From positions 62,001 through 126,000 of the forward strand of contig NIVC01002565.1 in NCBI GenBank assembly GCA_002269645.1: a DNA stretch of 64,000 nt, in the 5' to 3' direction. The stretch's first letter is position 1. Every line of letters begins with the position of its first letter. A model generated the notes under the pieces. That model worked only from the letters and a program-made list of their open reading frames with translations, made no database searches and was not told where the DNA came from. The DNA is from Macrostomum lignano. Lineage: Eukaryota. Shown here piece by piece: positions 5,252 to 64,000 of this stretch. The position numbers and the translations under genes were made by a program.

Positions 5252-7190
5252 GACTTACTTGACTTAGCTGCAGGGGTTCCACATCCGGATGCAGCGAGGA
5301 GGCGTTGCCGCCCATGTCGCTAACCCCTGACGACCACGGGCAGCCAGTTCTGCGGTGTCGCGCAGGGAGATCCGATGGTGCCGGTGTCCGCAGCGCGGTC
5401 TCCCTCTGGAGAGTCCAGGAGGTGGATGGTCGTTCGCCCGGTAGCTCTTAGGTAGCGGACGAGCTGTCAGAGATTCTCATGCCTAAAAAGTCGGAGAGGT
5501 CCGGGTTTGGGCCGAGGTAAGTGAGCCTGTTCTAATTAAAGGCGGGGCATTCACAGATGAAATGCTCCGCAGTCTCGACACCGGTCGGAGAGGCAGAATG
5601 GGCATTCCTCACTACGGTTTTTTACCGGGAGGTAACGATGCCTGACAAAACAGCCATGACCCAAGAGGGCCATGGTCACCGCCCTGATGTCCCTGCGGTT
5701 GAGTCCAAGCAGGGCCCTGCGCAGGGCGAAGGAAGGACAGGGGACAGCCTCGCGGGATTGTCGGCAGTCGGGGGCGTTAGCCCACCTTTCCCTCTGCTTT
5801 GAAGCCACCCACTGGTTGATCCGAGTGGTGACAACGGCGGTAGTGGTGGGGGCACGGGCAGGGGACCAGTAGAAGAACCGGTCGAGCCAGTCTTGGCCAG
5901 GCGATCGGCCAACTCGTTGCTGGGGTAGCCCGAGTGCCCGGGGATCCACCTTAGGGACACCTTGTTGGAGGCGCCTAAGCGGTTAAGCTGCGCGATGCAG
6001 TCGAGGACTGTACGCGAGCAGGTGGAGGTGCGCTTAAGGGCGTGGATCGCCGCTTGACTGTGCGAGTGGAGGGTAATCGCCTTCCCCAGACGCGCTGATG
6101 TACGGCTCCATGGCGCAGAAGCTGATGGCGAGAACTTCGTTTTGGAAAACAGTGGAGCAGGTGCCTGCTAGGAAGTCACCACGGTTCTCCCTCCAGACAC
6201 GATGCAGTATCCGTAGCCAGAGGTGGAGTTGATTTGGAACCCGTCAGTGAAGCAGTGGATTTCACGGGGTTTCCAGTTGTCCCTTGCCTCATGACGTGGT
6301 GGAATGCTGGTTTTGAATTCAAGCGGATGGCAGAGCGTAGACGGGATTCCGTCCGAGAGGGTCAGCAGGCCTTCCGCTGCTTCCAGGTCTCGCAGGCTGC
6401 GGTCGCAGAAGTTTTACTTTCTGAAAGCGAACTGCTTCTGGATGAGGACACCCGCGTCAAGCAGACGCGGGAGTTCATTGCCTCCCCTCCAACAAATAGG
6501 TCAAGGGGAAGGTCCAGGAAGAAGTTCATGCCAAGCAAAGGGTGAGAGGGAGTCGCGCTCATGATGGCTCGACGAGTGCGGCCTTGCACCTTGTTAGGAG
6601 CTTCAAGAACCCCTTTCACCTCTAGGCACTGTTCCAGATGAAGCCGGCAAAGTCTCACGATGGCAGTGTAAATCCACGGCGGGGGTGAGGCCCCAGGTAG
6701 CGCCGAAAGCTCTGCGGATCTGCGTGAGAGTCGCGAGAGCTTTGCAGGCTTTGGTTTGGACGTGTGGCGTGACGCCCAGACATCTGGTTTGTTTCTCCAT
6801 GGCAACGGGTTTGCGGTTCAATTCTCCAGTTTCGGCTGCTGATAAAAATTATAGCCACGGTTTTAGACTCAGAGAACCTGAGACCGCGGCTGTGTGCCCA
6901 GCGCTCGGCACGGTGGATGAAGGCTTGGAGGAGGTCTCTGAGGACCGCGGGTGATGGTCCAGCCCAGGGACTACTCCCTGGAGTAGTCCCTGGTCCAGCC
7001 ACAGTAGCCGCCGACATTTTAAACCGGGTCCGGATACGGGCTGCAGAGCAGCTCGTCCATGACAAGTTCCAGGGGATCTTGTGAACGTCGTCATCAATTA
7101 CCAATAATCTATTGGAGATGGAGACAGACGAACGGCTGATATCGCAGAAGTTCTATCGCCTGTCCGTCAGCGTCTCGGCGCAAAATAAAT
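5252..7190 (-). mobile_element. 5'-truncated, degenerate LOA-like non-LTR retrotransposon (RT C-terminus, RNase H, CCHC, 3' UTR)
   Basis: Fragmented ORFs homologous to ORF2 of 28631-34514: [45 protein letters not shown]...CPFC. Same 3' tail GCAGCTAAGTCAAG. Confidence 0.88.
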
Positions 7191-7584: not shown

Positions 7585-9781
7585 CCGATAACTTTTTGTC
7601 CTGTTCCATGGAATTTTACTTATCATCTACTTACACAGAAAAAATTGAAATTAGTTGTCTCTGATTTTTATCTAATTTTTACTTGATATTTCTAAAAAAT
7701 GACACCATAGAAAGTTCCACACCTGCTATGTAATTTTGAATGCCACTATTAGGATATATACCTATATGTATCGAAAAGGCTGTATGACGCAAAATAAAGA
7801 AAAACCTAATTTAAATATTGCGCAATATGTATTAACTAAACATGATAGTTAAACATTAAAAAAATAATATTGGCTTTGCTCCAAAACTTTATCCGTGTTA
7901 AAAAATAATTTTCAATTACTATGCCTTCAGTCGCTCTCTGATAAATTGATTTTCCGAAAAACAATTAAACTAACTCATCAGAATCAGAATCACTATAATA
8001 AAACGAGCATTGATACATAGCAATTGCATAAAGGCCCATGGCCCGCACATTATTCTATGGCTGTGCCGCTGTTGCTCATTATTATTGCCTATTAATAGGA
8101 TTCACTTAGGCCTAGGCCATATCTCGGCTAGCCAATTCAGCAACTAATTCCTCGCCCCTCTTGGTTGGGAATTTTGGAGCAGACCCAAGGCCAAGGCGAG
8201 ACCGAGACGAGATTTTAAGTTAGCCTTTGGACATTATTTTATCTTAACCTGGCTAGTCCTTAATTCCATTCTATTCTATAGATTTTTTAAACCTAGGCCT
8301 AGCATAAGAACGTGCATCAGGCATTGGGCCTAAGCCCTAACCTAAGTAAATGACCTAGGCCTATTTGTATTTGTGGACCAGCTTAGGCCTAGAATTTATA
8401 GTTAGATTTGCAAATAGAAACTTACTATTTTTGTATACATTTTTCAGAATCAAATTAAATGCATTTTGACATTACCCTCTGAGAATTTTTTTGCCAGGTT
8501 GCTAGAAAATTGTTTGTGATCTATTGAGTTATCATTGGCAAAGTGTTACAAATATACACCATGCATTTTACTAGCAAATTGCTTGCTAGCATCAATAGGC
8601 CCCAGCTTGCAACAATTGCTAGAATTTTGCTAGGCCCTTACATATTTGCTACAGTATAGGCCTAATTTTTCTTTGTAATATTGTTTATATATAGAAATTT
8701 GTATTGTATGATTTATAGGATTAAGTACCTCAGTTGTCTATAGCATTAAATGATAAAAACCTAATTAATTAGAGGGCCTAATATAAAAATTAAGAATTAG
8801 GCCCTAATATATATACTTTGTATTATCACTTATGTTAGACATTTGTTATTAATTAATTATAAAAAATCTTTTAATTATACTGTCTTAACCCTAAAAACTA
8901 AACTAAAGATTACTTAATTTTAAATTTTAATTGTTATCACTAGGCTATATTAATCGTTTAATAAAGTTTAAGCCTCTATTTCTATCCCAAAAGTTGATAA
9001 AAGTAATAGGGCTATTAGTTCAATCTTACTAATACTAGGCCCTACTAAACTAGGGGCCTAATCATCAAAGTTATAAAGCCTTGTATTCCTTTTTTAATAT
9101 CATTGCTATTGCTATATGAGTACTTATATTATTTGGCCTTAATCATTGAACTTTAAGTTTAGGCGCTAGAATTAGGCCTAGTCTAAGCATATAGGTTTAA
9201 TATTAGGCATATAGGTTTAATATTAGGCATATAGGTCTAATGTTAGGCCCTAGTCATATTGAAGTCTATATATGAATATAAATATATGTTTGAGTATATA
9301 TTTAAATAATTTACTTTTTATTAGGCTAGTACTATTTTTATTCTATACTAATAATATTCAATTTTGTTCTATACTAGTAGCATTCTTATAAAGGCTTGAG
9401 CAATAGAGGTTAAATAGGATTAAAGTCATTAGGCAGGATTAGGAATGCCTAAATATGCTGCTATCCTACTACTTCATTCTTAGAAAATTGATTAAATCTA
9501 AATATAATTCTCAAAAATTTATTAAAGCACTAATTCAATAAATCAGAGCATACTTTTTTATTAATTGATAAATTCACTTTTAAGTCAAAAGAGTTGCAAG
9601 GATTAGAAAATAGTGCTTTTTCCTAGGTGTCTTTATTCTGCCTATTACTGTTTCTTAATCAAAATTATATGTATCAACCCCAAAGTAAAACTGCTCTAAT
9701 AGTGCCACCAATGAGCTAATTGCCATAGATGAGTATGCTGCAAGAATGCCAATTGGGATAGTTATTCATAATTGCTTTTTG

Positions 9782-10643
9782 TGATGTGTTCCTTATTACC
9801 CGACTTTCGATAATCAAGGAACAATCACTTCTAGCTCAACAGCTAGGCAACCCAGTAAGTCAAACGAAGGTATTCAATTACCTTTAATCCGGATTTGAAT
9901 TTCTTGAGTAGTTCTCGCTAGGAACTTGTCAGTAGATCTCGTAGATCAGGCGCCTTGATTCTTCAGTTGCTCTGGTCCTGGTTCCTCTTGTACTTCCGAT
10001 AAGTTCTTCCGGCCGGTATCTTCCGTCAGGACCAATCAGAGGCCTCGTAGCAACAATGGGTACCCTGCGCCAAACTGCGGTCTAAATTAAGCCTCCTTCT
10101 TCTAGCAGTGCCTCTATGCACTCTAGGTATAGCTCCGGAAACCACTGATAGTCCTCTAAGATCTATCAGGGGCAGTCCTTCTGGAGACTGCAACCAATGG
10201 AGTCTAAACAGACTCAAGAGTCTCAACAGACTCAATTAGACTCAAGTCTCAATAGACTTGAGCGAGACGTCTCTAACACAACGGGCGCAAATAAGGAAGG
10301 CTTACCGCAACAACTCGACCGAGTCTCGATTGACTTGGTAGATCAGGAAGTCCTCCTAAGGCTTCCTCTTCGGAGCGCTCCTCTTCCGTGGGGAGAATGG
10401 CTCCGGTACCGCTTCAGATCGCTTGTATTTATAGACAAGTTTTTGATCCAAAATAGTATCATGACAATTCACGTGTTGCGCTAAAAGGGGAAAATGGCTC
10501 ATGGCGTATTATTCTGGTAACATCTTTTTCTGGTAGCGTGATTCATTCAAAGCTTAGGCGCACATGCGTGTACTTACTTACTTATAGTAGTATTATACGA
10601 TTATCTTTTTTTTCTGTTTTTGCGGGAGGCAGAACACTCTACA
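9782..10643 (-). repeat. 3' LTR (862 bp)
   Basis: Direct repeat of 19539-20400 at a constant offset of 9757. No differences seen by eye, and the ORF-track translations inside both LTRs are identical. Confidence 0.97.
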
Positions 10644-10646
10644 AAA

Positions 10647-10658
10647 TCTCCCTTTTTT
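10647..10658 (-). promoter_or_regulatory. Polypurine tract
   Basis: AAAAAAGGGAGA on the minus strand, 3 nt before the 3' LTR. Confidence 0.85.
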
Positions 10659-10773: not shown

Positions 10774-11207
10774 TCAAAACTCTAAAAACTTTTCAGTACA
10801 TATTGCGGTCAAAACTCGAATATCGCGTAGACATCGAGTGGCATCAGGTTTGATACGACACCACTTTCGAAACGTGCAGTCTCGCGGCATACTATTACAT
10901 AAGGGGCATCCTATAATGCCCCTACTAGCGGTTTGCTTCAAACAGTGCATGCAAATAAAATGTTGGTGGTTACAATATTGAAACGTGCGCCAAGAATAAC
11001 AATAGGCACATTGTCGCAAACTATCTCTACAGAGGGGACAATCTGCCAGGGCTGAATATAGTGTGAATCACTTAAACATTGTCCGCAAACTTTATGTCCA
11101 TTGATGCAAATAGTCGGTGGCTTGACAGCCAAGTCATCAGTTAAACATATCGGGCAGTCATATAGCTGCTGAGGCTGGGGCGCCTGTTTTGACAGTGCGT
11201 TGCCCAT
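10774..11207 (-). CDS. Accessory ORF of the LTR element: N-myristoylated tandem RING (2 x C3HC4) protein, ~144 aa after restoring one base near 11065
   Basis: Joins ORF-track 10938..11219 and 10774..11019. It starts MGNALSK, followed by CPIC-x12-C-x3-H-x2-C-x2-C-[frameshift]-CPLC and then CAYC-x8-C-x3-H-x2-C-x2-C-x11-CPLC. Confidence 0.75.
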
Positions 11208-11327: not shown

Positions 11328-11640
11328 CTAGCGTGGTCGTAGGTTGTAGCCATGTGGCTGGCTCACATCTGTCGTTTGAGTCTCCTCGTGCTTCGTCGCG
11401 ATGTGGCGGTTCGTTGAACGCGTGCGATCAGCGTTGTCTAATGTCGGTAGAAACGTCGCGTGTCAGTGTTGATCTTCTTTAGTCGATGAATGTGTACGTA
11501 GAACTGGTGCTGATGTGGATCTTGTACATTAGCCAGGCGTGCCGTTGTTGGTGACGTTAGTTGGACCACTCGATAGGGTCCTTTATACTTCTGTGCATGT
11601 TTATGCGTCTGCTGTGGCGGGTAGTGTAGGTAACGATGTC
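11328..11640 (-). CDS. Frameshifted integrase C-terminal tail (GPY module and YNLRPR end)
   Basis: Alternative frames read GDIV/YLHYPPQQTHKHAQKYKGPYRVVQL...VHIHRLKK and ...QPHGYNLRPR*, typical Gypsy integrase C-terminal motifs. Two single-base indels are required. Confidence 0.75.
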
Positions 11641-14600
11641 GCCGGCCGTCAGGGTTGTCGATCTCGCGTCGTTGCCGGTGGTCAGAGCCACCTGGTTGTC
11701 AATGTTGTGCTTGGCGATCTTCCATGCGAGGTGTAGTTGCGTGACGAATTTCTGAATGGAAGTCGGTACTTCCACGTACTGCGATGGTAGCAATTGCTGT
11801 GCGAGCAGATTCGGCGGTTGGAAGTCTCGTCCAAACATTAGGAAGAATGGCGTATTGTCCGTTGATCGATGAATAGCGCTGTTGTAGGCCATTGTTACAG
11901 ATTGCAGGTAGATGATCCAGTCTTCCGGCTGTTGGTGCGCGAAATGTGTAATCATCTCGTGCAGGTTGCGGTGAAACCGTTCAACCATGTTTGCCTTCGG
12001 ATTGTAGGTCGATGTGTAGATCTGCGTAATGTTGAGAATCCTTACGACTTGCTGAAACAGTTGCGATGTAAACTGCGATCCGTTGTCCGATGTGAGGTTC
12101 TTCGGCGTGCCGTACTTGCAAATGATTTCGTTGAAGAAACTCATTGCCACTGTCTGAGCTGTGATGTCCGGTATCGGTATGGCGATAGCAAACTTCGAGA
12201 AGATATCCAAGGCGGTTAGAATGTAGGTGTAGGCGATGCCCTGGAGACAGCTCGGTGGTAGCGGTCCGGTGATGTCGATGCTTAGACAGTCCATTGTAGT
12301 CGACTTCGGAATGGACTGTAGCTGCGGTTTCTGTCGTCGTCCTGTCTTTGATGCAGCACATGAATGGCAGTTGTTGCAATACTGCTTGATGTCGCCGTAC
12401 ATAGTTGGCCAAAAGTAGTATTGTTCCACTCTCGCGATGGTCTTTGCTGCCGACAGGTGTCCAGCGAGTGGGTTGTCGTGTAGCTCGTTGAGAATTGCTT
12501 GCCGAAACGAATATGGTATGTAGATCTTGGGTTTATTGTCGCTCATCCAGTAGAGCCGTGACTTATTGATTGTTAGGTGTTGTCGTTGCTTGCGTAGGAA
12601 TTTTCGTTCCATGGGACTGAGTTTGATGTTCTTGTCGTCGTCTTTAACCGCTTGGTAGAAGTTGTCGCGCTCGGTTTCATCCACCAACTCCTTGATGTTA
12701 GGGATTGGATGAATGGCGTTGACTTCATAGGCTCTTGACAGGGCGTCCGCGGCTTTGTTGGTAATTCCTGGTTTGTAGACGAGTTTGTAGTTGTAATCCT
12801 GGATCTTGAGTGTCATTCTGATGAGTCGGTTGTTGGTCTGTCCTTTTGTAGTTACGACGTAGGTCAATGGTGCATGATCCGTGCGTACTATCGTCTGTAT
12901 TGGAGAACCATAGATGTAGTAATGAAACTGTCGCAGGGCGAACAAGACTCCTAGTAGCTCTCGTTCCGTAGCTGACCACTTTGTTTCATTTGGTTTGAGT
13001 GCTCGACTGACGTAGGCAATAGGTCGTTCCTTCTTGTCCTCGGTTTCCTGTAGTAGGACTGCTCCGAGTCCCGTTCCTGAGGCGTCTGTCTCGATGATGA
13101 AGGGCTTGTCGAAGTCCGGATGCTGTAGCAGTGCGTCTGATGTCAGCTGTCGTTTGATTTCGTCGAAACTTTCCTGTTGTCTCTGTGTCCAGTTGTCTTG
13201 CTTCCATTTGTCGAACTTGAGCAGGTCGTACAGTGGCTTTGCTGTCTTTGCGAAGTTAGGTAAGAACTTCCTGAAGTATTGCGCAAGTCCAAGGAATGAT
13301 TGGACCTTCGTTATACTGGTTGGCGTAGGAAACTTCTTCACCTTTTCCACGTTGTCTGGGTCCGGTGAGATTCCTTTGGCTGTCACCTGATGTCCCAGGT
13401 AACGCACGTTGTCTCGGAAGAATTTGCATTTAGTTGGTTGTAGCTTCAGACCTTGGCGTTGAATGAGCGCTAGGGCCTTCTCCGTAGCTTCGTAGAGTCG
13501 CTCGAAATCCTCTCCGTAGGCTAAAATGTCGTCGACATAGTGCAGCAGGTTCGTGCATCCTGCTAGCATGTATGCTGTTAGTCGACTCATCGTTGCTGGG
13601 CTGTTGCTAAGTCCCATCGGCGATCGATTGTACTCGTATACTTGTCCATTGTAGGTTTTGAAAGCCGTGTACTGTCGTGACTCTTTCTCGATTTCAATTT
13701 GCCAAAATCCATGACGTAGGTCGAACACCGTGAACAATTTTGCCGTGTTGAGCTTTGCTAGTAGTTCGGAGATCTTCGGTAGGCTTTGCTGATCCGTCGG
13801 TATGTACTTGTTCAACAGTCTGAAGTCGCATACGAGTCGTCTTTCGTTTGTCTCCTTCTTCTGTACCAGTAGGCACGGTGAGGAGTAAGCCGAAATAGCT
13901 TTGCTGATGATGCCGTGCTTTAGCATTTTATCGATGATTTCGTCAAAGTGTTGTTGCAGATGCTTGGCGATCGGGTACGGCTTGCACTGAATTGGTTCCG
14001 TGTGCGGCAGAAGTTTGATTTCCTGTTTGATGTCCTTGGCTCGTCCGATGTCGTAATCATGATGGCAGAAGGCTTCGTTGTACTTCCACAACAGCTGTCG
14101 AACTTTCCTCTTTTGCTGTTCCGTAATCGGGCTGTCATCCAAATTGATCTTCTTTTGAAATTCTTCCTCTGTTAGTCGTGGAGTCGCTTGTTCAATCAGC
14201 ATAACCGATGCTTGGGTGTTGAGATGACCGATGCACATTCCTTGTCGTAGATGAACCGTTTCTGTGTTCGGGTTGAAGATTTGTACTGGCAGTTGCTTAT
14301 CCTTTGCAACCAGCACTAGTGCCGTAGGCATCATGATTTGATGTTTTGCCGTGACTCTCCTGTGTGGATCAAATATCATTGCTTCATCTGCCGCGCTGGT
14401 CGTTTTCGCTCTGACCCAGCATGCGCTTTCAGGCTGGATAATGACATCTTGCTGCAGAGTTACTTTCGGTAGTACTCGAATCTGGTTGATCAGCGGTTGC
14501 TCCACCGTGTCGATCCTAAACGTTTGCTTGTTGAAGTCGAAGGTCAATGGTAGTTGAAGCTGCTTGAACGTGTCGATTCCAACGATGACGTCTTGGTTTG

Positions 14601-17600
14601 GTAGTCTGTCGATGATGTACGTCGGGACCGTCAGCTGTTTATTAGCAATTTTCAAGTCGATATCTGCTTTTCCTAGGATGTTGAGTGAATGTCCTCCTGC
14701 TCCTGCAACTGCGATTGCTGCTGGTCGTACCGCGAGTCGTAGCTTGTTGCATAATTGTTGCGAGATGACTGTGATCGAGCTGCCTGAATCCAGTAGTGCT
14801 CGACATGGCAAGTTGTTGACAATGACCTGAGCCATTGCTTTGCCAATCTCGGCGTGTAGCGTACAGACGTAGTTTTCCGGCCATTTTGGCTCGTGCTGTT
14901 CTGCTTGATAGTTGGGTGGTTGTATCCTTGGTGCCGTTGGTGTTGTCGGAATCGATGGATATAGCCGCGTTGCTAGTGTCGGTTGCCCTTGAACCTCACA
15001 ATGTGCAGTTTCTGTTAGTTCTAAACTGTTGTCGCTTTCCGTTGTCGTTCTTTGCATTATGGCATTCACTGTCTTCTTAGCTCTTGGACAAGTTTGACTG
15101 AAGCACCGTACGATCGATGAAATGATGAAGATTGCCGTGACAATCCACACAATGCAAGCACCGTAGAAGATGAATCCTTGATAGAGACTGCCTCTTCCAT
15201 TGAGCAGCTCCCAGAAGCTATTTGTCCAAAATGATTTGATGGCGCTGTCCATTGAAACAAGGACGGGAAATCTTCCTGTCCCGGTTCCTTTGTCCTTTCT
15301 TGTGAACAGCTGGTGAATCATCTTGCGTTGGGTGATGAACGCTTGCAAGAAGTCGTTGATCGTCCATCCTGGTGTTATCTCGTCAAGTTGGATATCGGCG
15401 AATGGCGTATACTTCGTTCTGTTGAATCGGATTTTCAAATCCTCCATGTCGTAGTTTTCGTCGACGATTACTTCCGGTTCTGTGACGTTTGCTGTCGTTC
15501 CAGTTGTTTTGATGACGTGTAGTGCATTGTCCAGTTGATAGTAGTTTACTGCCGTGGTGCAAGGTCTCGGTATTGCGGTGCCAACGATGATGTTGTGTAC
15601 CGTGTCCAAGAATCCCTGAATTCGTTTTCCTTCGTAGAACGCTTCAATCCTTGGCTTATCGTAGCAGGTTGTTGACGTGTTTGACGGCAAGATGTTAAAG
15701 TGCTGTATCGGCGTGCACTTGTATATCAACAGATGCTCGTATATTGGAACTGCCAAAACGTTCGTCATTCCGGTGATTTTACGAAAAGTCATCGTAGGGT
15801 TGACATAGTAGTTTTGTCTGGCATAATTTAAGTTGATTGCGTGCATTTTGCAAGTTAGCTGGACCAGTGTTCGATGCAAGTGGTTTAACTGGTTGTGTAG
15901 ATTGTGATCCAAAGCCGTTATCTTTGCTGACAACAGCCGGTTTGACACCAGTTTGGGACGTTCGATGTCACGTCGTCTTCTATTCTGTTTTTCTTGTTGC
16001 TGATACGTTCCATTGATGATTGCCAAGAAGGTTTGTTTGTCTTCATCCTTTACGTAGACTGGTATCTCTTGTTCCGAGATGAATAGTGTCTTGTCTGTAT
16101 CCTTGCATTTCAGTTTTTGCTCGACTGGTTTCTTTTGAAACGTCAGTGCCAAGTCTCCTGACTTTGCCAAAAACGTATTTGACAGTAGTCCTCCTTCAAC
16201 TGTGTGATACTTTTGAAGCTTGCAGTCAATTTCCGGCTCAACTTCCCACGCGAAGAAGTATTGTCGTGATTTGTACGGTTCCTCATAGTGTGATTGTGCT
16301 CTGTGCTCAATCTGCCATCGATAGTCTTGATGATATGTTGGACTCAGTGGTAGACTGTGTAGTTCTTCCTTCCGTAGAATCGGCGTTGGACACCATCCTT
16401 CACTGTATCGACATTCGCTTAGTTGCAGCTGTAACGATTCCATTTTCTCGTACGGATTGTAGTAGAATGGAATATTTCTGATCAAGTAGCTGTTGCGTGC
16501 CATATATTCTTTCCATTTTCCGAAGAAGTGAATATATCGACCGTTGGCTGAATTCTTTGTTCTGAACAGCTGTGCGTTGCCGACCTTCTCATCTGGTTCC
16601 AGTTCACCATCCTTTGAAAATAGTGTTTGATTCCATTGTAGGCATTCCGCGTGCGACACATGTAGCTCATGTTGTTTAAATCGGATCCGGTTCCATTGTC
16701 CGCGCCAAACTTTTTCCACCAGGTGCTTGTCTCTGAAGCATACTATCCCGTGTTGTCGATGCTTCTTGATGTTAGCCTTGTAGAGATCGAGTGTAATCTT
16801 CTTTGGTTTTGTCTGGTTTGTCTTGAAGTAACTGCATTTGATGTCGGTTGGTATCTTGTAGATCATCGGTTGGATATGCGCATCCGTTGGACAAATCATT
16901 GGCTTTTCCGTTGCCGTTGCTTTGGCGACTACTGCTATCAGTAGTATCACGATGATCCAGAATAGCCAGTTTTTCCACTTCTTGGATTTTGCCGTTGTCC
17001 TTGCTGGCATTGGCTGCGATCGCCATTCGTTATCTTCCATGTCCGCATCATATTCTTTCGGTTGTTCCATTGGCTGATCCAGGCGGAAGGCTTCTGATTC
17101 GCTTTGCTTTTTGGTTATTTCATTATCTTCGTCTGCGGCTTCTTCCGATGTTTCCGTTGTTTCACTCCATTGCGTTTGGTATCTTTTCTCTGTCTTGTAG
17201 TCGACCGTTTGAATATAGGCTTCACCATTTCGTTTGTATCGGATCTCGTAGCATTCGTCGCTGTCGGAACTCGGCTTTTCTTTCACCTGTTCTTTTTCCA
17301 TTTCTTCATCTTTCCATTGTATTTCGTAGCCTTGATCGCTGTCGGAACTTAGATTCTCCGCTCTCGGTTCTTCCTGCATTCCTCTTTCGGCTTGGTAGTC
17401 GTTCGTGTCATCACGCACCTCGCAGTCGTGGTCGTTGCCGTAACTTCTACATTCTTCTTCTTCTTTCATTTCTTTGTCTTTCATGCTCGTTTTGTCGTCA
17501 TCCACTGTTGTCGATTCATAGTTGTTTTCTTCGCCGGTTTTCATCTTTTCTTCGTTGCCGATGTCGCTCTCCGCCTCCTCCCTTGTCTTGTGATTTACTT

Positions 17601-18822
17601 TCTTCCTGTTTTCTCTGCTGTCTCCGGTGGTCTCTTTTAATTTGATCATTTCGGTTTCATTCGTCTCTTCTGTGTTGTCAGTGTTGTCCTCGTGCGTCGT
17701 CTTCTTTTCGATCAAGCTGATGTCAAGTTCCGGGACTGTGAAGTCCATTTCCAAGTCGTCAATTGTGAACACTTGCTGTTCTTGCTGTTCATTTTCCGGT
17801 GTGTACGTGATGGCATTCGCGTATCGTGGCATTGCTTGCGTCGGCTGTCTTTGTGTGTATCTGACGTTGCGTGGCCTGTAGCCATTACTTCTGAAGCGGC
17901 CTTCGTTTCCGAAGCGGCCATCATTTCCGGAGCGGTCATTATTTCCGAAGCGTCTATCATTTCCGAAGCGTCTCATTCCTTGTTGTTGGCGATTTTGATA
18001 GTGCTGCCATGGTTTCTGCGGCTTCTGATTGTTGAATATCTGTCGCGGCTTGTCGTATCTTGTTGACCAATGAGGACAATTAATCTGATAATGTCCTTCT
18101 TGTCCGCAGTAGTAACATCTGGCTGAGGCTTGTTCATTTCGTCTTTTTTGTTCGGCGATAGCAGCTGTCTGGTGCTGCATTAACTTGTTTAGTTGCTGCG
18201 TCAGTTTCTGCACTTCATTGTTGCCTGTCGTCATTAATGGGGCACTGGCTTCCCATTGCATTCCGCAACGCAAAAGGTCTTCTTCGGTTTCGATATTTTC
18301 ACGCAAAAGTCTATCCCGAAGTGACGGCTGTGCGTTGTTTATTACGTGCAGGATGAGGTTTTGTTCACGATCCATCAATCGTTGTCTTTCTCTGGCGGCC
18401 AATTCTGCCGCTCCCAGTGGTGGTTGGTCCGCAGCTTGCAGCGGTGGCTGATGCAGTGCCTTAATTATCTGGCGGATATCGTCCACAAAGGCGAGGAAGG
18501 ATTCTGTTGCTTGCATCCTTCTGTTATGCAACTTGTGCAGCAGCACTGATCTGTTTGTGCCGCAACGGTTGAAATGCGCGCGCAGTTGAATGATTAGTGC
18601 TGGATAATTTTGCTGTGTTGCCGCATCCAGCTTGCCGTAAATTTCTCGCGCAGTACCTTGGAGAAGAGGTGGCAGCAGCTGTGCCTTCTCTGGATTTTGT
18701 AGGTTGTATTCCCTACATACCAGGTCAAAATGGTCGACAAATGTGTTAAAATCTTTCTCCATCGAGAAAGTACCGACCGTTTCTTTGATGTCTCTGTGTA
18801 CCGTTGGATTGCGCCGCGCCAT
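11557..18822 (-). CDS. Gag-Env-Pol polyprotein, 2421 aa (capsid, CCHC nucleocapsid, acidic linker, gB-like envelope glycoprotein, aspartic protease, RT, RNase H, integrase)
   Basis: CCHC CYYCGQEGHYQINC (~18075-18116). Signal WLFWIIVILLIAVVAKA (~16920-16975), furin RRRR (~15970-15982), TM (~15110-15180). Protease LLDSGS (~14780-14800), RT YVDD (~13530-13540), RNase H IIETDASG (~13078-13101). Integrase HHCC (12355-12483) and DDE (SIDITGP, SDNGSQF, VERFHR). Confidence 0.97.
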   Translation of the reverse strand: MARRNPTVHRDIKETVGTFSMEKDFNTFVDHFDLVCREYNLQNPEKAQLLPPLLQGTAREIYGKLDAATQQNYPALIIQLRAHFNRCGTNRSVLLHKLHNRRMQATESFLAFVDDIRQIIKALHQPPLQAADQPPLGAAELAARERQRLMDREQNLILHVINNAQPSLRDRLLRENIETEEDLLRCGMQWEASAPLMTTGNNEVQKLTQQLNKLMQHQTAAIAEQKRRNEQASARCYYCGQEGHYQINCPHWSTRYDKPRQIFNNQKPQKPWQHYQNRQQQGMRRFGNDRRFGNNDRSGNDGRFGNEGRFRSNGYRPRNVRYTQRQPTQAMPRYANAITYTPENEQQEQQVFTIDDLEMDFTVPELDISLIEKKTTHEDNTDNTEETNETEMIKLKETTGDSRENRKKVNHKTREEAESDIGNEEKMKTGEENNYESTTVDDDKTSMKDKEMKEEEECRSYGNDHDCEVRDDTNDYQAERGMQEEPRAENLSSDSDQGYEIQWKDEEMEKEQVKEKPSSDSDECYEIRYKRNGEAYIQTVDYKTEKRYQTQWSETTETSEEAADEDNEITKKQSESEAFRLDQPMEQPKEYDADMEDNEWRSQPMPARTTAKSKKWKNWLFWIIVILLIAVVAKATATEKPMICPTDAHIQPMIYKIPTDIKCSYFKTNQTKPKKITLDLYKANIKKHRQHGIVCFRDKHLVEKVWRGQWNRIRFKQHELHVSHAECLQWNQTLFSKDGELEPDEKVGNAQLFRTKNSANGRYIHFFGKWKEYMARNSYLIRNIPFYYNPYEKMESLQLQLSECRYSEGWCPTPILRKEELHSLPLSPTYHQDYRWQIEHRAQSHYEEPYKSRQYFFAWEVEPEIDCKLQKYHTVEGGLLSNTFLAKSGDLALTFQKKPVEQKLKCKDTDKTLFISEQEIPVYVKDEDKQTFLAIINGTYQQQEKQNRRRRDIERPKLVSNRLLSAKITALDHNLHNQLNHLHRTLVQLTCKMHAINLNYARQNYYVNPTMTFRKITGMTNVLAVPIYEHLLIYKCTPIQHFNILPSNTSTTCYDKPRIEAFYEGKRIQGFLDTVHNIIVGTAIPRPCTTAVNYYQLDNALHVIKTTGTTANVTEPEVIVDENYDMEDLKIRFNRTKYTPFADIQLDEITPGWTINDFLQAFITQRKMIHQLFTRKDKGTGTGRFPVLVSMDSAIKSFWTNSFWELLNGRGSLYQGFIFYGACIVWIVTAIFIISSIVRCFSQTCPRAKKTVNAIMQRTTTESDNSLELTETAHCEVQGQPTLATRLYPSIPTTPTAPRIQPPNYQAEQHEPKWPENYVCTLHAEIGKAMAQVIVNNLPCRALLDSGSSITVISQQLCNKLRLAVRPAAIAVAGAGGHSLNILGKADIDLKIANKQLTVPTYIIDRLPNQDVIVGIDTFKQLQLPLTFDFNKQTFRIDTVEQPLINQIRVLPKVTLQQDVIIQPESACWVRAKTTSAADEAMIFDPHRRVTAKHQIMMPTALVLVAKDKQLPVQIFNPNTETVHLRQGMCIGHLNTQASVMLIEQATPRLTEEEFQKKINLDDSPITEQQKRKVRQLLWKYNEAFCHHDYDIGRAKDIKQEIKLLPHTEPIQCKPYPIAKHLQQHFDEIIDKMLKHGIISKAISAYSSPCLLVQKKETNERRLVCDFRLLNKYIPTDQQSLPKISELLAKLNTAKLFTVFDLRHGFWQIEIEKESRQYTAFKTYNGQVYEYNRSPMGLSNSPATMSRLTAYMLAGCTNLLHYVDDILAYGEDFERLYEATEKALALIQRQGLKLQPTKCKFFRDNVRYLGHQVTAKGISPDPDNVEKVKKFPTPTSITKVQSFLGLAQYFRKFLPNFAKTAKPLYDLLKFDKWKQDNWTQRQQESFDEIKRQLTSDALLQHPDFDKPFIIETDASGTGLGAVLLQETEDKKERPIAYVSRALKPNETKWSATERELLGVLFALRQFHYYIYGSPIQTIVRTDHAPLTYVVTTKGQTNNRLIRMTLKIQDYNYKLVYKPGITNKAADALSRAYEVNAIHPIPNIKELVDETERDNFYQAVKDDDKNIKLSPMERKFLRKQRQHLTINKSRLYWMSDNKPKIYIPYSFRQAILNELHDNPLAGHLSAAKTIARVEQYYFWPTMYGDIKQYCNNCHSCAASKTGRRQKPQLQSIPKSTTMDCLSIDITGPLPPSCLQGIAYTYILTALDIFSKFAIAIPIPDITAQTVAMSFFNEIICKYGTPKNLTSDNGSQFTSQLFQQVVRILNITQIYTSTYNPKANMVERFHRNLHEMITHFAHQQPEDWIIYLQSVTMAYNSAIHRSTDNTPFFLMFGRDFQPPNLLAQQLLPSQYVEVPTSIQKFVTQLHLAWKIAKHNIDNQVALTTGNDARSTTLTAGDIVTYTTRHSRRINMHRSIKDPIEWSN
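15060..16980 (-). other. Envelope glycoprotein domain (class III, herpesvirus gB-like) embedded in the polyprotein
   Basis: Signal peptide, Cys-rich ectodomain with six N-X-S/T sequons, furin site and C-terminal TM. The motif series C...NP...C.P...CY..P...GFL...PCT...YY parallels HSV gB domains III-IV. Confidence 0.85.
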
Positions 18823-19518
18823 GTTGTTGATAGGGTAGAACGGTAGTTCAAGATCTGGATCGATTTGTAACGGATCGTCCAGTGTGGTGTTTGCCTCGGA
18901 ATAAACCTCGACTGTAACGAATTGCCTTGTGGTGTCGATTTGTTATTCGCTGGCCTCGGATGCGGTGTGGCTTGCTGCCACTGGTTGTCCTCAAATGAAC
19001 TTGTTCTGTTCGCTTGCTGATTTCGCACTTATGCGGCGTCCCGCAAAGTGTATCTTCAAGTTGAAGTGGACTTGTCTTCTTGCTTTGCAAAGTCTTTCTT
19101 CTCTTCTTTGACTCTCTCTCTTTTGTCAATTAACTCTGCTCTCCACGAAGTTTCAATTAATTTCGGTTTTGTTTTAGTTTTTGTGCCGGCAAAATGTTTC
19201 AGTTATTTTTTGTTTGTTTTGCGTCGACGATTCTTTTTATTTTTGGTTTGTTTTCAGTGTACCGACGAAGTTAATTTCGGTTTTGTTTTAAACTCACACT
19301 TGCTCGAGCTCGTCAAAACAAAATTTTAACACGCGTGCTCAAACTGTACTCAAATTTGACAGGTGCTCAAACCTGTACACCAAATTTTACTCGAGTTTCA
19401 AAACGTAACGGACTTAAAAAGTGTTAACTCTAACACGTGCGCGCAAAATTAATGAAGTCGCTCTGTCGTCACTTTACAATAGCTTGGCCAGGCTATTGCT
19501 CAAGGTTTGAGTAGTGCC

Positions 19519-19536
19519 GAGAGGGCGAGATCACCA
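19519..19536 (-). promoter_or_regulatory. Primer binding site
   Basis: TGGTGATCTCGCCCTCTC begins 2 nt after the 5' LTR. TGG is complementary to tRNA CCA. The primer tRNA was not identified. Confidence 0.8.
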
Positions 19537-19538
19537 AT

Positions 19539-30685: not shown

Positions 30686-33600
30686 ATGAATAAGCTCCAC
30701 GCTGCCAAAGGAGCGACATTCTGTCTGCAAATTAATTTACAGCATTGCGTATCTGCGTCAGTAAATCTGATGAAGATTGCTGAGCTGTACAGGCCAGGCC
30801 TCATCCTGATCCAGGAACCCTGGATGCGCAACGGTAAGTTGCCCAACATTCCCTCTGGCTACTCTGATTTTTATGTGTGTGGCCCGGGGAACAGCCGCCC
30901 TAGAGCGGCTATCCTCGCTGCTAGCCATCTCCAGGCTTGGCTGAGGACTGATCTCTCTGATGGAGACCTTTGCGTCATCCAATCTAATCATTTCTCTCCG
31001 CGTACGTGTCTTGTTGCCTCGGTTTATATCCCAGGCGACAGAGACCCTGCTCCTGAGAGTTTACTGCGCCTCGCGCAGTACTGCGAGTCCCAGAACGCTG
31101 AGCTGTGCTTAGGGGGCGACCTCAACGCGCACCACAAGCACTGGGGCAGCAAAGATACCAACACTAGAGGAGAGGAGCTTTTGGCCCTCATCTCTAACAC
31201 AAACCTCATGCTCTGCAACCGCGGCAGCACTCCTACCTTTAATAATGGCAGATGGACCGAGGTCCTCGACGCCACACTCGTTACCCCAAGACTCTTTGAC
31301 AGAGTTGAGGAGTGGAGAGTCTGGTCTGAGGAGCCCTCCCTGTCTGACCACTGCTTTATCGCCTTTAACATCGCGGACACTAAAACCCAGTCTCCGATCA
31401 CTTGGAGACGCAATATCCGCAACACTGATTGGGCGGCCTACAAGGCTGCCCTTGATCTGCACCTGCAGGAACTCACGGACTTACGTCCGATTGAGACCTG
31501 CGAGGATGTGGATCATATGGCTGAGACGCTGACAGGTTGCATTATTGAAGCCTACGAAGCGGCTTGTCCTGCTCGCGCCTACAAAGGCAAGACCTCGGCG
31601 CCGTGGTGGAACCCGGAGCTGGGGAAACTCAGGCGGAAGGCCAAAAGCCTTCATCGCCGTGCCATGAAGACCGGAAACCCGGAGGACATGGAGCTTTTCC
31701 GGCAAGCCTCCCGCAATTTCAAATCTGAAGTGCGCAAGGCCAAGGAATGTAAGTGGCGCCAATTCTGCAATGAATTGGATCAAGACAGACCTACTTCTAG
31801 GCTTGTCAAGGCCCTTACAATGGACAAAATGTCCAAATTAGCCATGATCAAAAAAGATGATGGCTCTCTTACTAAAGACCCTGAAGAAGTGCTTCAGCAT
31901 ATGCTTAGCACATTCTTCCCGAGGGTACCTACTGCTAGACCGGAGCCCAACCATTCGATGGATGGAGCCACCCTAGCGGCGGGCATTGTCACTGAAGACC
32001 TAATCGCTCGTGCGGTCAGAACCTTCAAACCCTTCAAATCTCCTGGACCTGATGGTATCTACCCTGTTCTCCTTCGTGAAGCAGCCAAGATACCCTCGTT
32101 CCTGAGACTCACCGCAATCTTATGCGGGCCTCTATCCAGCTGGGATACGTTCCCAAATGCTGGACTGAAGCTCGGTAGTCTTTATTCCCAAACCTGGGAA
32201 GGGTGACTACCAAAGCGTCAAGGCCTTCCGGCCTATTAGCTTAACGTCAGCAATGCTTAAGCTCACTGAGAGGCTTATTCTCTGGCGGCTGCTGTCCTGC
32301 GAGCTGACAGCGATGCCCCTCAGCAATAATCAGCACGCCTTCCGTACCGGGAGGTCGACTGACAGCGCCCTGCATGCGATTGTCGAGAAGATTGAAAGGG
32401 CGGTACTGGGTGACGGTTACGCTCTGGCTCTCTTTCTTGACATTGTTGGCGCCTTCGACAACGTTATCTTTGAAGCGTTTCAGAGGGCCCTTCAAAATCG
32501 CAAAGCTCATGCTACCCTCATACGGTGGATCATGTACATGATCTCCAACCGTACGGTCACTGCCCAACTTCTTGGGCAAACTGCCTCCACCAGAGTCTGT
32601 AAGGGTGGACCCCAAGGCGGAGTCCTCACCCCGACGCTCTGGAACCTGGTCATGGACGCTCTTTTGAGTGACTCCCGACCCGACCCCGTATTCAAAGTCG
32701 GGTATGCTGATGACGTCACGGCCATTGTGGCAGGACCGTCTCCCAGCACGCTCAGGGATCTGATGCAGAGCTTTATCCGCAAAGCAGAATCCTGGGCCAA
32801 TGACAATGGTCTGGAACTCTCTGAGCCCAAAACCGTTGCCATTATGTTTACCAGCAGACTACGCTGGAACATACGTCCTCTGCAGCTCTACGGCAGAGAT
32901 ATTGCCTTCGCGCACCAGACCAGATGTCTCGGGGTCATACTTGACCACCGGCTCAACTGGTCCTCCACGTGAAAGCAAAAGCCAAGCGTGCCTCAGCCAT
33001 CCTGGCCCAGCTCCGACGAGCACTTGGCACTTCTTGGGGTCTATCCCCAAAGCGGCTTTGGTGGATCTATACTTCCGTAGTTAGACCTGCCATTACGTAC
33101 GCCTCTGTTGTCTGGGTTAGCGCTACCCAGGTCAAAAGCCATGCAGACCTGCTCAACACGATCCAAGGCAGAGCGTGTAGGCTCATCTGCAACGCCACCA
33201 GGTCCACGCCCTTTGCTGGCATGGGGGCCTTCCTTAATCTTCCGCCTCTTGACCTCTTCATCAGGGTGAGGCGGCTAGAACGACGCGGCGTCTAATTGAT
33301 GCCGGCGTCAAATTCATTTACATGAGAGCACCTGCTAAGCGGAACCTTGTCCCGCATAGCGATCTGTGCCTCAACTTTCTCAACGAGTGTCAGGCCAATC
33401 GCGTCTTCACCGATGGCATTGCCTCAACGCTCAACCTGAGACAGCGCTACTCCGTAGCTATCGACTCGCGCGATAACATCAATGACCAATGGAACCCTGG
33501 TGAGCTTCATTGCTACACCGACGGTTCTAAGCAGTCAGCCAACACCGGCTTTGGTGTTGGAATCTTTCTGAACGGGAGGGTCATCGCTACCCACGCTCAA

Positions 33601-34422
33601 TACACTGGGGTCAACTCCAGTGTTTTCCAAAATGAAGTTCTGGCCATCAGCTCCTGCACTGCAGAGCTTCTCGCCACTGGCGTTACTGGTAAGAACATCA
33701 TTTTCCATTCGGACAGCCAAGCTGCCTTGCACGCCATCAGTGGCTGCAGCACCAACTCTGCTACAGTCCTCGACTGTATCAAACTCCTCAACGTGTTGGG
33801 TTCCGCCAACAAAATTACCCTTAAGTGGGTTCCGGGGCATGTGGGGATCCGAGGAAATGAGTTGGCTGACACCCTTGCAAAAGTTGGTGCCTCCGGCTCC
33901 TCTCTCGGCCCCGAACCTCTTGTCCCGATTCCTGGCTGTGTCATCGACTCGCGCATCAAAGCGTGGATCAGGACTCAGCACCGCTCGACTTGGGCGAACC
34001 GCACGAACTGCAGGCAATCCAGAGGCGCTGTCCCTCAGCCCTCTCACCAGCTCCGGAAGCTCCTCTTGCGCCTCTCGCGCAGAGACATCCGGGCTGCCAC
34101 CATGACCCTCTCTGGTCACGGCTGCTTCTCCAGGCACCAGCACCTGCAGGGCAACGCCACCAACGCCACCTGCAGTTTCTGCAACTCAGGTGACGAAACC
34201 GCTGAGCATTTCGTCAGCATCTGTCCCGCCTTCACGCGGGCCAGACTCACTTACCTCGGGCCACACACATCTATTACTGAAGCGTGCAAACCCGAAAACT
34301 TTAATCAGCTCATGCGCTACCTTCGGGCCACCCGCAGGGCTGAACTCTCCTTTCCAGAGAGCACTATAGCTGCTGGCGACACTGGGGGACCTCCCTGGGC
34401 GGCGCCAACCCTCCGTCCATAG
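30686..34422 (+). CDS. ORF2 of the LOA-like element: APE endonuclease, reverse transcriptase, RNase H, CCHC (split by several 1-nt indels)
   Basis: ORF-track pieces 30686-32206, 32253-32972, 32969-33295 and 33322-34422 are consecutive domains of one protein. Confidence 0.92.

Positions 34423-36635: not shown

Positions 36636-64000
<27,365 letters not shown>

Follow-up and report, generated by a model that had tools for sequence, protein, structure and literature searches.

Drosophila errantiviruses such as gypsy and ZAM, as well as vertebrate retroviruses, carry env as a separate gene 3′ of pol, and its product belongs to another fusogen class than the one described below. For Nematoda, Bryozoa and Platyhelminthes, errantiviruses were reported to have the order GAG-ENV-POL and an Env of the HSV/gB type (herpes simplex virus, glycoprotein B) only (Chary & Hayashi, eLife 2026, PMC13524379). 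According to the same source, elements with this order are not monophyletic, their ectodomains are flanked by a signal plus a transmembrane segment (TM) or by two TMs, and the flipped ENV-POL order in a nematode metavirus is credited to Sacco et al. 2022 (J Gen Virol, doi 10.1099/jgv.0.001739). In this study, we analysed a stretch of 64,000 nucleotides from the flatworm Macrostomum lignano (contig NIVC01002565.1, positions 62,001 to 126,000; the whole stretch is called the window), whose minus strand carries a long terminal repeat (LTR) element with env between gag and pol. Judged by its sequence, this element belongs to Ty3/gypsy (Metaviridae), is young, has many copies and falls into the published class with GAG-ENV-POL order and a gB-type Env. 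It shares the Ty3/gypsy-type Pol order with the Drosophila errantiviruses and the flipped ENV-POL order with the nematode endogenous retroviruses, from which it differs by its host. We favour, at a probability of about 70%, a model in which it is expressed as one unspliced polyprotein that is threaded through a membrane.

Four features characterise the element: Gag and integrase share a frame, two hydrophobic segments enclose a predicted class III fold, both LTRs are identical, and the genome holds many near-identical copies. A single open reading frame (ORF, 18822 to 11557) encodes 2421 amino acids (aa) from its ATG without an internal stop; the next longest stop-free frame within the window spans 508 aa. 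With CCHC and the Pol domains placed by Pfam and motif scans, the order is Gag with a CCHC knuckle, acidic linker, signal-like segment, ectodomain with RRRR, TM, protease (PR), reverse transcriptase (RT), RNase H (RH) and integrase (IN), and two hydrophobic peaks flank the insert. This bears out the original prediction of an envelope inserted in frame between nucleocapsid and protease. The peaks, called by Kyte-Doolittle hydropathy (KD) alone, lie at aa 620-638 (KD 2.41) and aa 1216-1234 (KD 2.43), with the next best in the protein at 1.51. Because basic residues precede the first peak and follow the second, Gag and Pol would be expected in the cytosol by the positive-inside rule, so that peaks and flanks also speak for the two-membrane-segment topology proposed earlier. 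The capsid assignment is softer, as Pfam DUF1759 was matched at E 0.0015, under the cut-off of that family; Atlas neighbours of the Gag region carry Ty3_capsid/Retrotrans_gag at scores of 0.90-0.92. The whole-protein Pfam scan did not pick up env or capsid. No Pfam family was matched in the acidic linker (aa 346-612), which is the part diverging most between subfamilies, codons 288-513 being unalignable in the subfamily of about 91% identity.

By its predicted fold, the insert is a class III, gB-type fusogen, in agreement with the gB-type Env of the original prediction. A model built from 45 sequences reached a predicted local distance difference test (pLDDT) of 78 and a predicted TM-score (pTM) of 0.67; a single-sequence fold (pLDDT 30) was discarded. 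In a Foldseek search of the PDB all matches listed were herpesvirus gB (best E 9e-20), and realignment to the prefusion-like gB of human cytomegalovirus (8vyn) gave Z 12.1 and a root-mean-square deviation of 6.2 over 387 residues. Against this assignment stand the low whole-chain TM-scores to gB of 0.25-0.29, which are put down to the fact that most PDB entries are postfusion structures. Among predicted viral structures (BFVD) the best matches were the glycoproteins of Beihai rhabdo-like virus 3 and of Nyavirus. At the sequence level, Pfam Monjiviricetes_fusion (PF24664) was matched at E 8e-6, under its cut-off, and in 24 of 45 aligned members, and a sequence search of the PDB with the ectodomain gave no match under E 0.66. 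Herpesvirus gB and the G proteins of Monjiviricetes, nyamiviruses and chuviruses resemble this Env in fold along the ectodomain at only 10-17% identity; unlike them, it is one section of a retroelement polyprotein and carries Pol on a predicted cytosolic tail. The ectodomain had also been described as Cys-rich, which does not hold in comparison with the whole protein (12 Cys in 571 aa, 2.1%, vs 42 in 2421 aa, 1.7%). The nematode endogenous retroviruses reportedly have small extra ORFs, an Env resembling that of nyamiviruses and a continuous gag-env-pro-pol ORF; with the latter, the single frame would be on record as well.

The assignment to Ty3/gypsy follows from direct LTRs with TG...CA ends, a target-site duplication, a primer-binding site (PBS), a polypurine tract, the Pol order PR-RT-RH-IN and a GPY/F motif in the integrase tail, the tail being seen in sibling copies (Table 1). 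In the similarity ranking, the best PDB match of the RT was Ty3 RT (E 2e-64), with foamy virus and murine leukaemia virus (MLV) at 1e-40 or weaker. The Pfam scan of the polyprotein contained no Pao domains, whereas BEL/Pao (Tas-like) gB-env elements are marked by the Pao protease A17 and by env 3′ of integrase. Since both LTRs are identical, the insertion is very recent. As in the published GAG-ENV-POL HSV/gB class, env lies between gag and pol, the gB-type ectodomain has a signal or TM on one side and a TM on the other, and multiple copies have >98% identity. The published class is further labelled by RT clade S, IN clade H and a named cysteine-bridge class. Supplementary file 1 of PMC13524379 lists nine flatworm elements, among them Platyhelminthes_Rhabditophora_Mlig_errantivirus_2 with gB Env, 16 copies, an LTR of 863 and a PBS 2 nt past the LTR. 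Our element has an LTR of 862 bp, 15 matches at 100% identity, a gB-type Env and the same ENV-POL order; the listed PBS is the reverse complement of TGGTGATCTCGC, the same 12 bases at the same distance of 2 nt. The listed element is from M. lignano, which is also the source of the nearest named proteins (ALD16272.1, 98% identical). Judged by these features, both are very probably the same family.

The original prediction started from the premise that env is always found 3′ of pol, which is outdated. It had further taken the architecture as a candidate for a scarcely described or undescribed one and had itself named prior documentation of this order as grounds for giving up the novelty; since GAG-ENV-POL with a gB-type Env is already documented for Platyhelminthes, Nematoda and Bryozoa (PMC13524379), this claim fails. 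Our literature search, with subscription journals mostly outside its reach, found no paper on the envelope of a Macrostomum LTR retrotransposon and none under the gag-env-pro-pol or NERV (nematode endogenous retrovirus) designations, and PMC4604429, in the part available, does not mention LTR elements. The main text of PMC13524379, as far as available, holds no mention of polyprotein, splicing, frameshift, RING, late domain, ESCRT (endosomal sorting complexes required for transport), PTAP or budding.

Table 1. Parts of the GAG-ENV-POL element and their positions in the 64,000-nucleotide window
Feature	Residues (aa)	Position	Strand	Remarks
Target-site duplication TTTG, 4 bp		9778..9781; second copy 20401-20404	+	
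5′ LTR, 862 bp		19539..20400	-	TG...CA; identical to 3′ LTR over 862/862 bases
Primer-binding site TGGTGATCTCGC		19525..19536	-	starts 2 nt past 5′ LTR
Leader, 716 nt		18823..19538	-	without any ATG
Gag, capsid-like region	1-235	18118..18822	-	weak Pfam DUF1759; Atlas neighbours Ty3_capsid/Retrotrans_gag/PNMA
Nucleocapsid zinc knuckle CCHC	236-249	18076..18117	-	
Acidic linker	346-612	16987..17787	-	30% D/E
Putative internal signal or signal-anchor	619-639	16906..16968	-	KSKKWK before, AKA-TA after; putative cleavage
gB-type (class III) fusogen ectodomain, predicted	640-1210	15193..16905	-	571 aa; 12 Cys, 6 N-glycosylation sequons
RRRR, putative furin-type site	948-951	15970..15981	-	in low-confidence loop of model
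Env transmembrane anchor, predicted	1216-1238	15109..15177	-	followed by R..C..PRAKK
Late-domain-like cluster LYPSI, PTAP, PPNY	1287-1305	14908..14964	-	TM-PR linker; putative function
Aspartic protease (LLDSGS)	1332-1421	14560..14829	-	Pfam
Reverse transcriptase (YVDD)	1654-1813	13384..13863	-	Pfam
RNase H	1878-2010	12793..13191	-	Pfam
Integrase, HHCC and core	2102-2275	11998..12519	-	GPY/F tail past the frame break of this copy near 11630
Accessory RING-finger ORF		10777..11207	-	separate, between pol and 3′ LTR; broken in window copy
Polypurine tract		10644..10658	-	
3′ LTR, 862 bp		9782..10643	-	direct pair with 5′ LTR

A query of the genome with 2 kb of env gave 93 candidates, of which 40 were scored. 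Fifteen of these, the window copy included, match at 100% (rounded) over the 2 kb, and the other 25 at 92-94% identity. As siblings we used 20 of the 39 other matches, from gag to mid-integrase, together with 20 3′ stretches; they were found by an env query, so that copies without env lay outside the sample. Eight of the fetched copies are >99% identical over 7.2 kb or more. In all 20 siblings the TM is followed by PR, and in 15 of them one stop-free frame holds both, whereas the frame from CCHC to PR is continuous in six, five of the eight copies at >99% being among these. Contigs from four sequencing runs of four studies reach all bins of the element. Two junctions are spanned by them, gag with the signal (16864-18595) and env-TM with the linker (14688-15696), and the rows listed contain no indel from 11633 to 19216. 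They also bear on the end of the ORF, which had been given as uninterrupted down to 11557. This stop is not the ORF end of the family: in the window copy the frame is lost within the integrase tail, at about codon 2397, where the contigs of all four runs deviate from this copy, and the integrase core, GPY/F and C-terminus share one frame in 18 of the 20 sibling 3′ stretches.

An exhaustive homologue search gave 56 matches, and 55 are left when the near-identical P0001 is set aside. Nine of the 55 distant homologues unite the CCHC motif, the match to env and, further downstream, a protease motif in one chain, a count that is approximate because gene models can bridge breaks; most of the others are fragments. 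Among the nine is a second M. lignano family (P0013 and its cluster, 2852 aa), which is 29% identical in env and has PSAPP and LYPTL in its TM-PR linker. For M. lignano, the table in PMC13524379 has just one element. Another homologue with the full order, of 2991 aa, is encoded on a contig of 9424 nt, which leaves little room for introns. In homologue P0059, a BEL/Pao element, env follows integrase. Single homologues show further domain arrangements, with two protease-like domains downstream of env in P0034, protease-like matches on both sides of env in P0028 and a NADAR domain upstream of env in P0015.

In the model that we favour, the unspliced genomic RNA, with its ATG-free leader, would be translated into one polyprotein. 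Gag would be made in the cytosol, and the internal signal would move Env into the lumen of the endoplasmic reticulum (ER), where it would be glycosylated, trimerise and later be cut at RRRR. The TM would halt the transfer, so that PR-RT-RH-IN comes to lie in the cytosol while still joined to the tail of Env, and Pol would be packaged via this tether. A cut by signal peptidase would leave Gag anchored in the membrane by the signal until a protease trims it. Clustering of Env would bring protease monomers together and start maturation. Through LYPSI, PTAP and PPNY, the Env tail would recruit ALIX, TSG101 and a NEDD4-type ligase, and the ESCRT budding signal, which retroviruses have in Gag, would thus sit on the Env-Pol junction. 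Enveloped particles would finally fuse with neighbouring stem or germ cells by gB-type fusion.

Several observations weigh against one continuous polyprotein. In 14 of the 20 siblings the frame from CCHC to PR is not continuous or the stretch that could show one is missing. Most breaks are private, scattered and single-base, and we read them as probable assembly errors or decay after insertion. Two breaks between TM and PR are shared, one near codon 1262 (L018, L019 and L020) and one near codon 1247 (L021 and L025), and eight of the 40 TM-PR linker matches are one base shorter. For these shared breaks, which fall in two subfamilies, an inherited defect, a systematic assembly error or helper copies for Gag-Env only come into question. 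Moreover, the four runs are taken for RNA by guess, so that expression is a guess as well. In a rival arrangement, the single ORF would be real, and splicing, early termination or frameshifting would govern the ratios, with Gag or Gag-Env dominant and the full polyprotein minor. Retroelements generally need an excess of Gag, and the TM-PR breaks in five of 20 siblings would stop translation 35-50 aa past the TM start; the run contigs, from which rare splice forms are dropped, leave room for a rare spliced RNA. We nevertheless regard such ratio control as rather unlikely, since 32 of the 40 linker matches have full length, no env-skipping joint was seen in these contigs from any of the four runs, no indel in the linker is listed in them, and no slippery heptamer was found in the frame overlap of the five broken copies. 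A programmed frameshift between Env and PR was set aside on the last two points. The 1:1:1 ratio of Gag:Env:Pol in the original prediction fits the contigs without an env-skipping joint, and a fit is no proof.

Less probable still is that the element now multiplies inside cells, with non-infecting particles budding into the ER and Env serving as membrane tether and in-frame spacer instead of as entry protein. An open env frame would be weak evidence of a fusion function, because a frameshift in an in-frame env would cost Pol, and in PMC13524379 copy number is regarded as compatible with expansion without being counted as proof that the elements are active. The gB fold, the furin site, the sequons and the late-domain motifs are kept across subfamilies, which argues against a mere spacer, as does env in all 20 siblings fetched, although these were found by an env query. 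That the arrangement is a chimera of the assembly, or that env entered a single copy in frame by chance, is refuted: scattered single-base frame breaks do resemble error-prone assembly, yet there are at least 40 genome matches, the run contigs bridge gag-signal and env-TM-linker, an independent protein record (P0002) joins the TM to PR-RT-IN, and the same order is found in unrelated homologues and in print.

The late-domain-like cluster deserves separate treatment. LYPSI, PTAP and PPNY correspond to the late domains by which retroviral Gag engages ALIX, TSG101 and NEDD4, respectively; HIV p6 carries PTAP and LYPXnL, and PPxY is another retroviral class. In retroviruses these motifs are located in Gag, whereas here they stand behind the Env anchor, within 19 residues of a 96-aa TM-PR linker, and PTAP and PPNY occur only once each in the window protein. 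Among the 20 siblings, which go down to about 91% DNA identity, none has lost any of the three. A motif count was carried out on homologues having the C-terminal part of env, with seven of the 42 entered proteins dropped (five without a TM found, two with a linker of <40 aa). P[ST]AP is present in the linkers of six of 34 distant homologues, which are 20-33% identical mutually where aligned. With the window protein this makes 7/35 linkers, compared to a shuffled mean of 0.32, and none of 2000 shuffles reached it. The density is 1.87 per 1000 aa in linkers and 0.12 elsewhere, and 10 of 11 other letter orders of the motif were found in at most one linker.

Other results speak against a late-domain function. 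[ST]APP is equally frequent (six of 34 linkers, four of them overlapping as P[ST]APP), 28 of the 34 homologue linkers have no P[ST]AP and 26 of 35 linkers have neither P[ST]AP nor PPxY. Enrichment is weak for PPxY (75 of 2000 shuffles) and for YPxL (35 of 2000), and the test is post hoc, as the motif was picked after it had been seen in the window protein. No paper on late domains, PTAP or ESCRT in errantiviruses was found in the literature searched. Tentatively, and with somewhat more doubt than trust, we propose that late domains on the cytosolic tail of a gB-type Env, within an unspliced single polyprotein, may couple envelopment, Pol packaging and protease activation via one membrane-tethered chain.

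Between pol and the 3′ LTR, a separate ORF encodes a RING finger. An example from a sibling stretch lies at L032:337-1005 (minus strand). The ORF has 222 aa in five of the 20 sibling stretches and 124-144 aa in eight, and is shorter, broken or not found in seven. A comparison with 93 candidates of 122-389 aa gave no homologue at E 0.001, and the Atlas matches were generic viral RING proteins, with recognition under threshold. The literature search gave no paper on a gypsy LTR element with an additional RING-finger ORF; PMC5408684, in the part available, describes other accessory ORFs and no RING. The product of this putatively captured ORF may be a ubiquitin ligase with an accessory role. In three copies, L018 (G000:C2447), L023 and L027, an integrase end with RING, or a second gag frame, lies directly upstream of another copy, a sign of tandem or nested copies.

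The window contains further features outside the element. Pieces of a host gene of the MAGUK type (23080-25565, minus strand) encode PDZ-SH3 as well as guanylate kinase; they occupy two long frames with a 35-bp tandem repeat between them. In a non-LTR retrotransposon (29485-34422, plus strand), AP endonuclease, RT and RNase H each have a frame of their own, and short inverted matches near 5500-6160 suggest a fragment related to it. A short repeat resembling a short interspersed nuclear element (SINE) is dispersed in five copies in both orientations (818-1056, 37816-38034, 39774-40036, 45708-45944 and 50929-51190), and many minisatellites are found from 36 kb onward.

As the architecture is published and the family is very probably catalogued, the element adds no new kind. 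It is useful as a test case because the family is young, has a high copy number, resides in a flatworm kept in the laboratory and is apparently present in RNA runs, if these were guessed correctly as RNA. The late-domain cluster offers a specific and cheap hypothesis for particle budding and, if true, would represent a budding logic that is undescribed for retroelements in the literature searched. The family could therefore serve the cell biology of GAG-ENV-POL elements with respect to topology, stoichiometry, budding and the entry into stem or germ cells.

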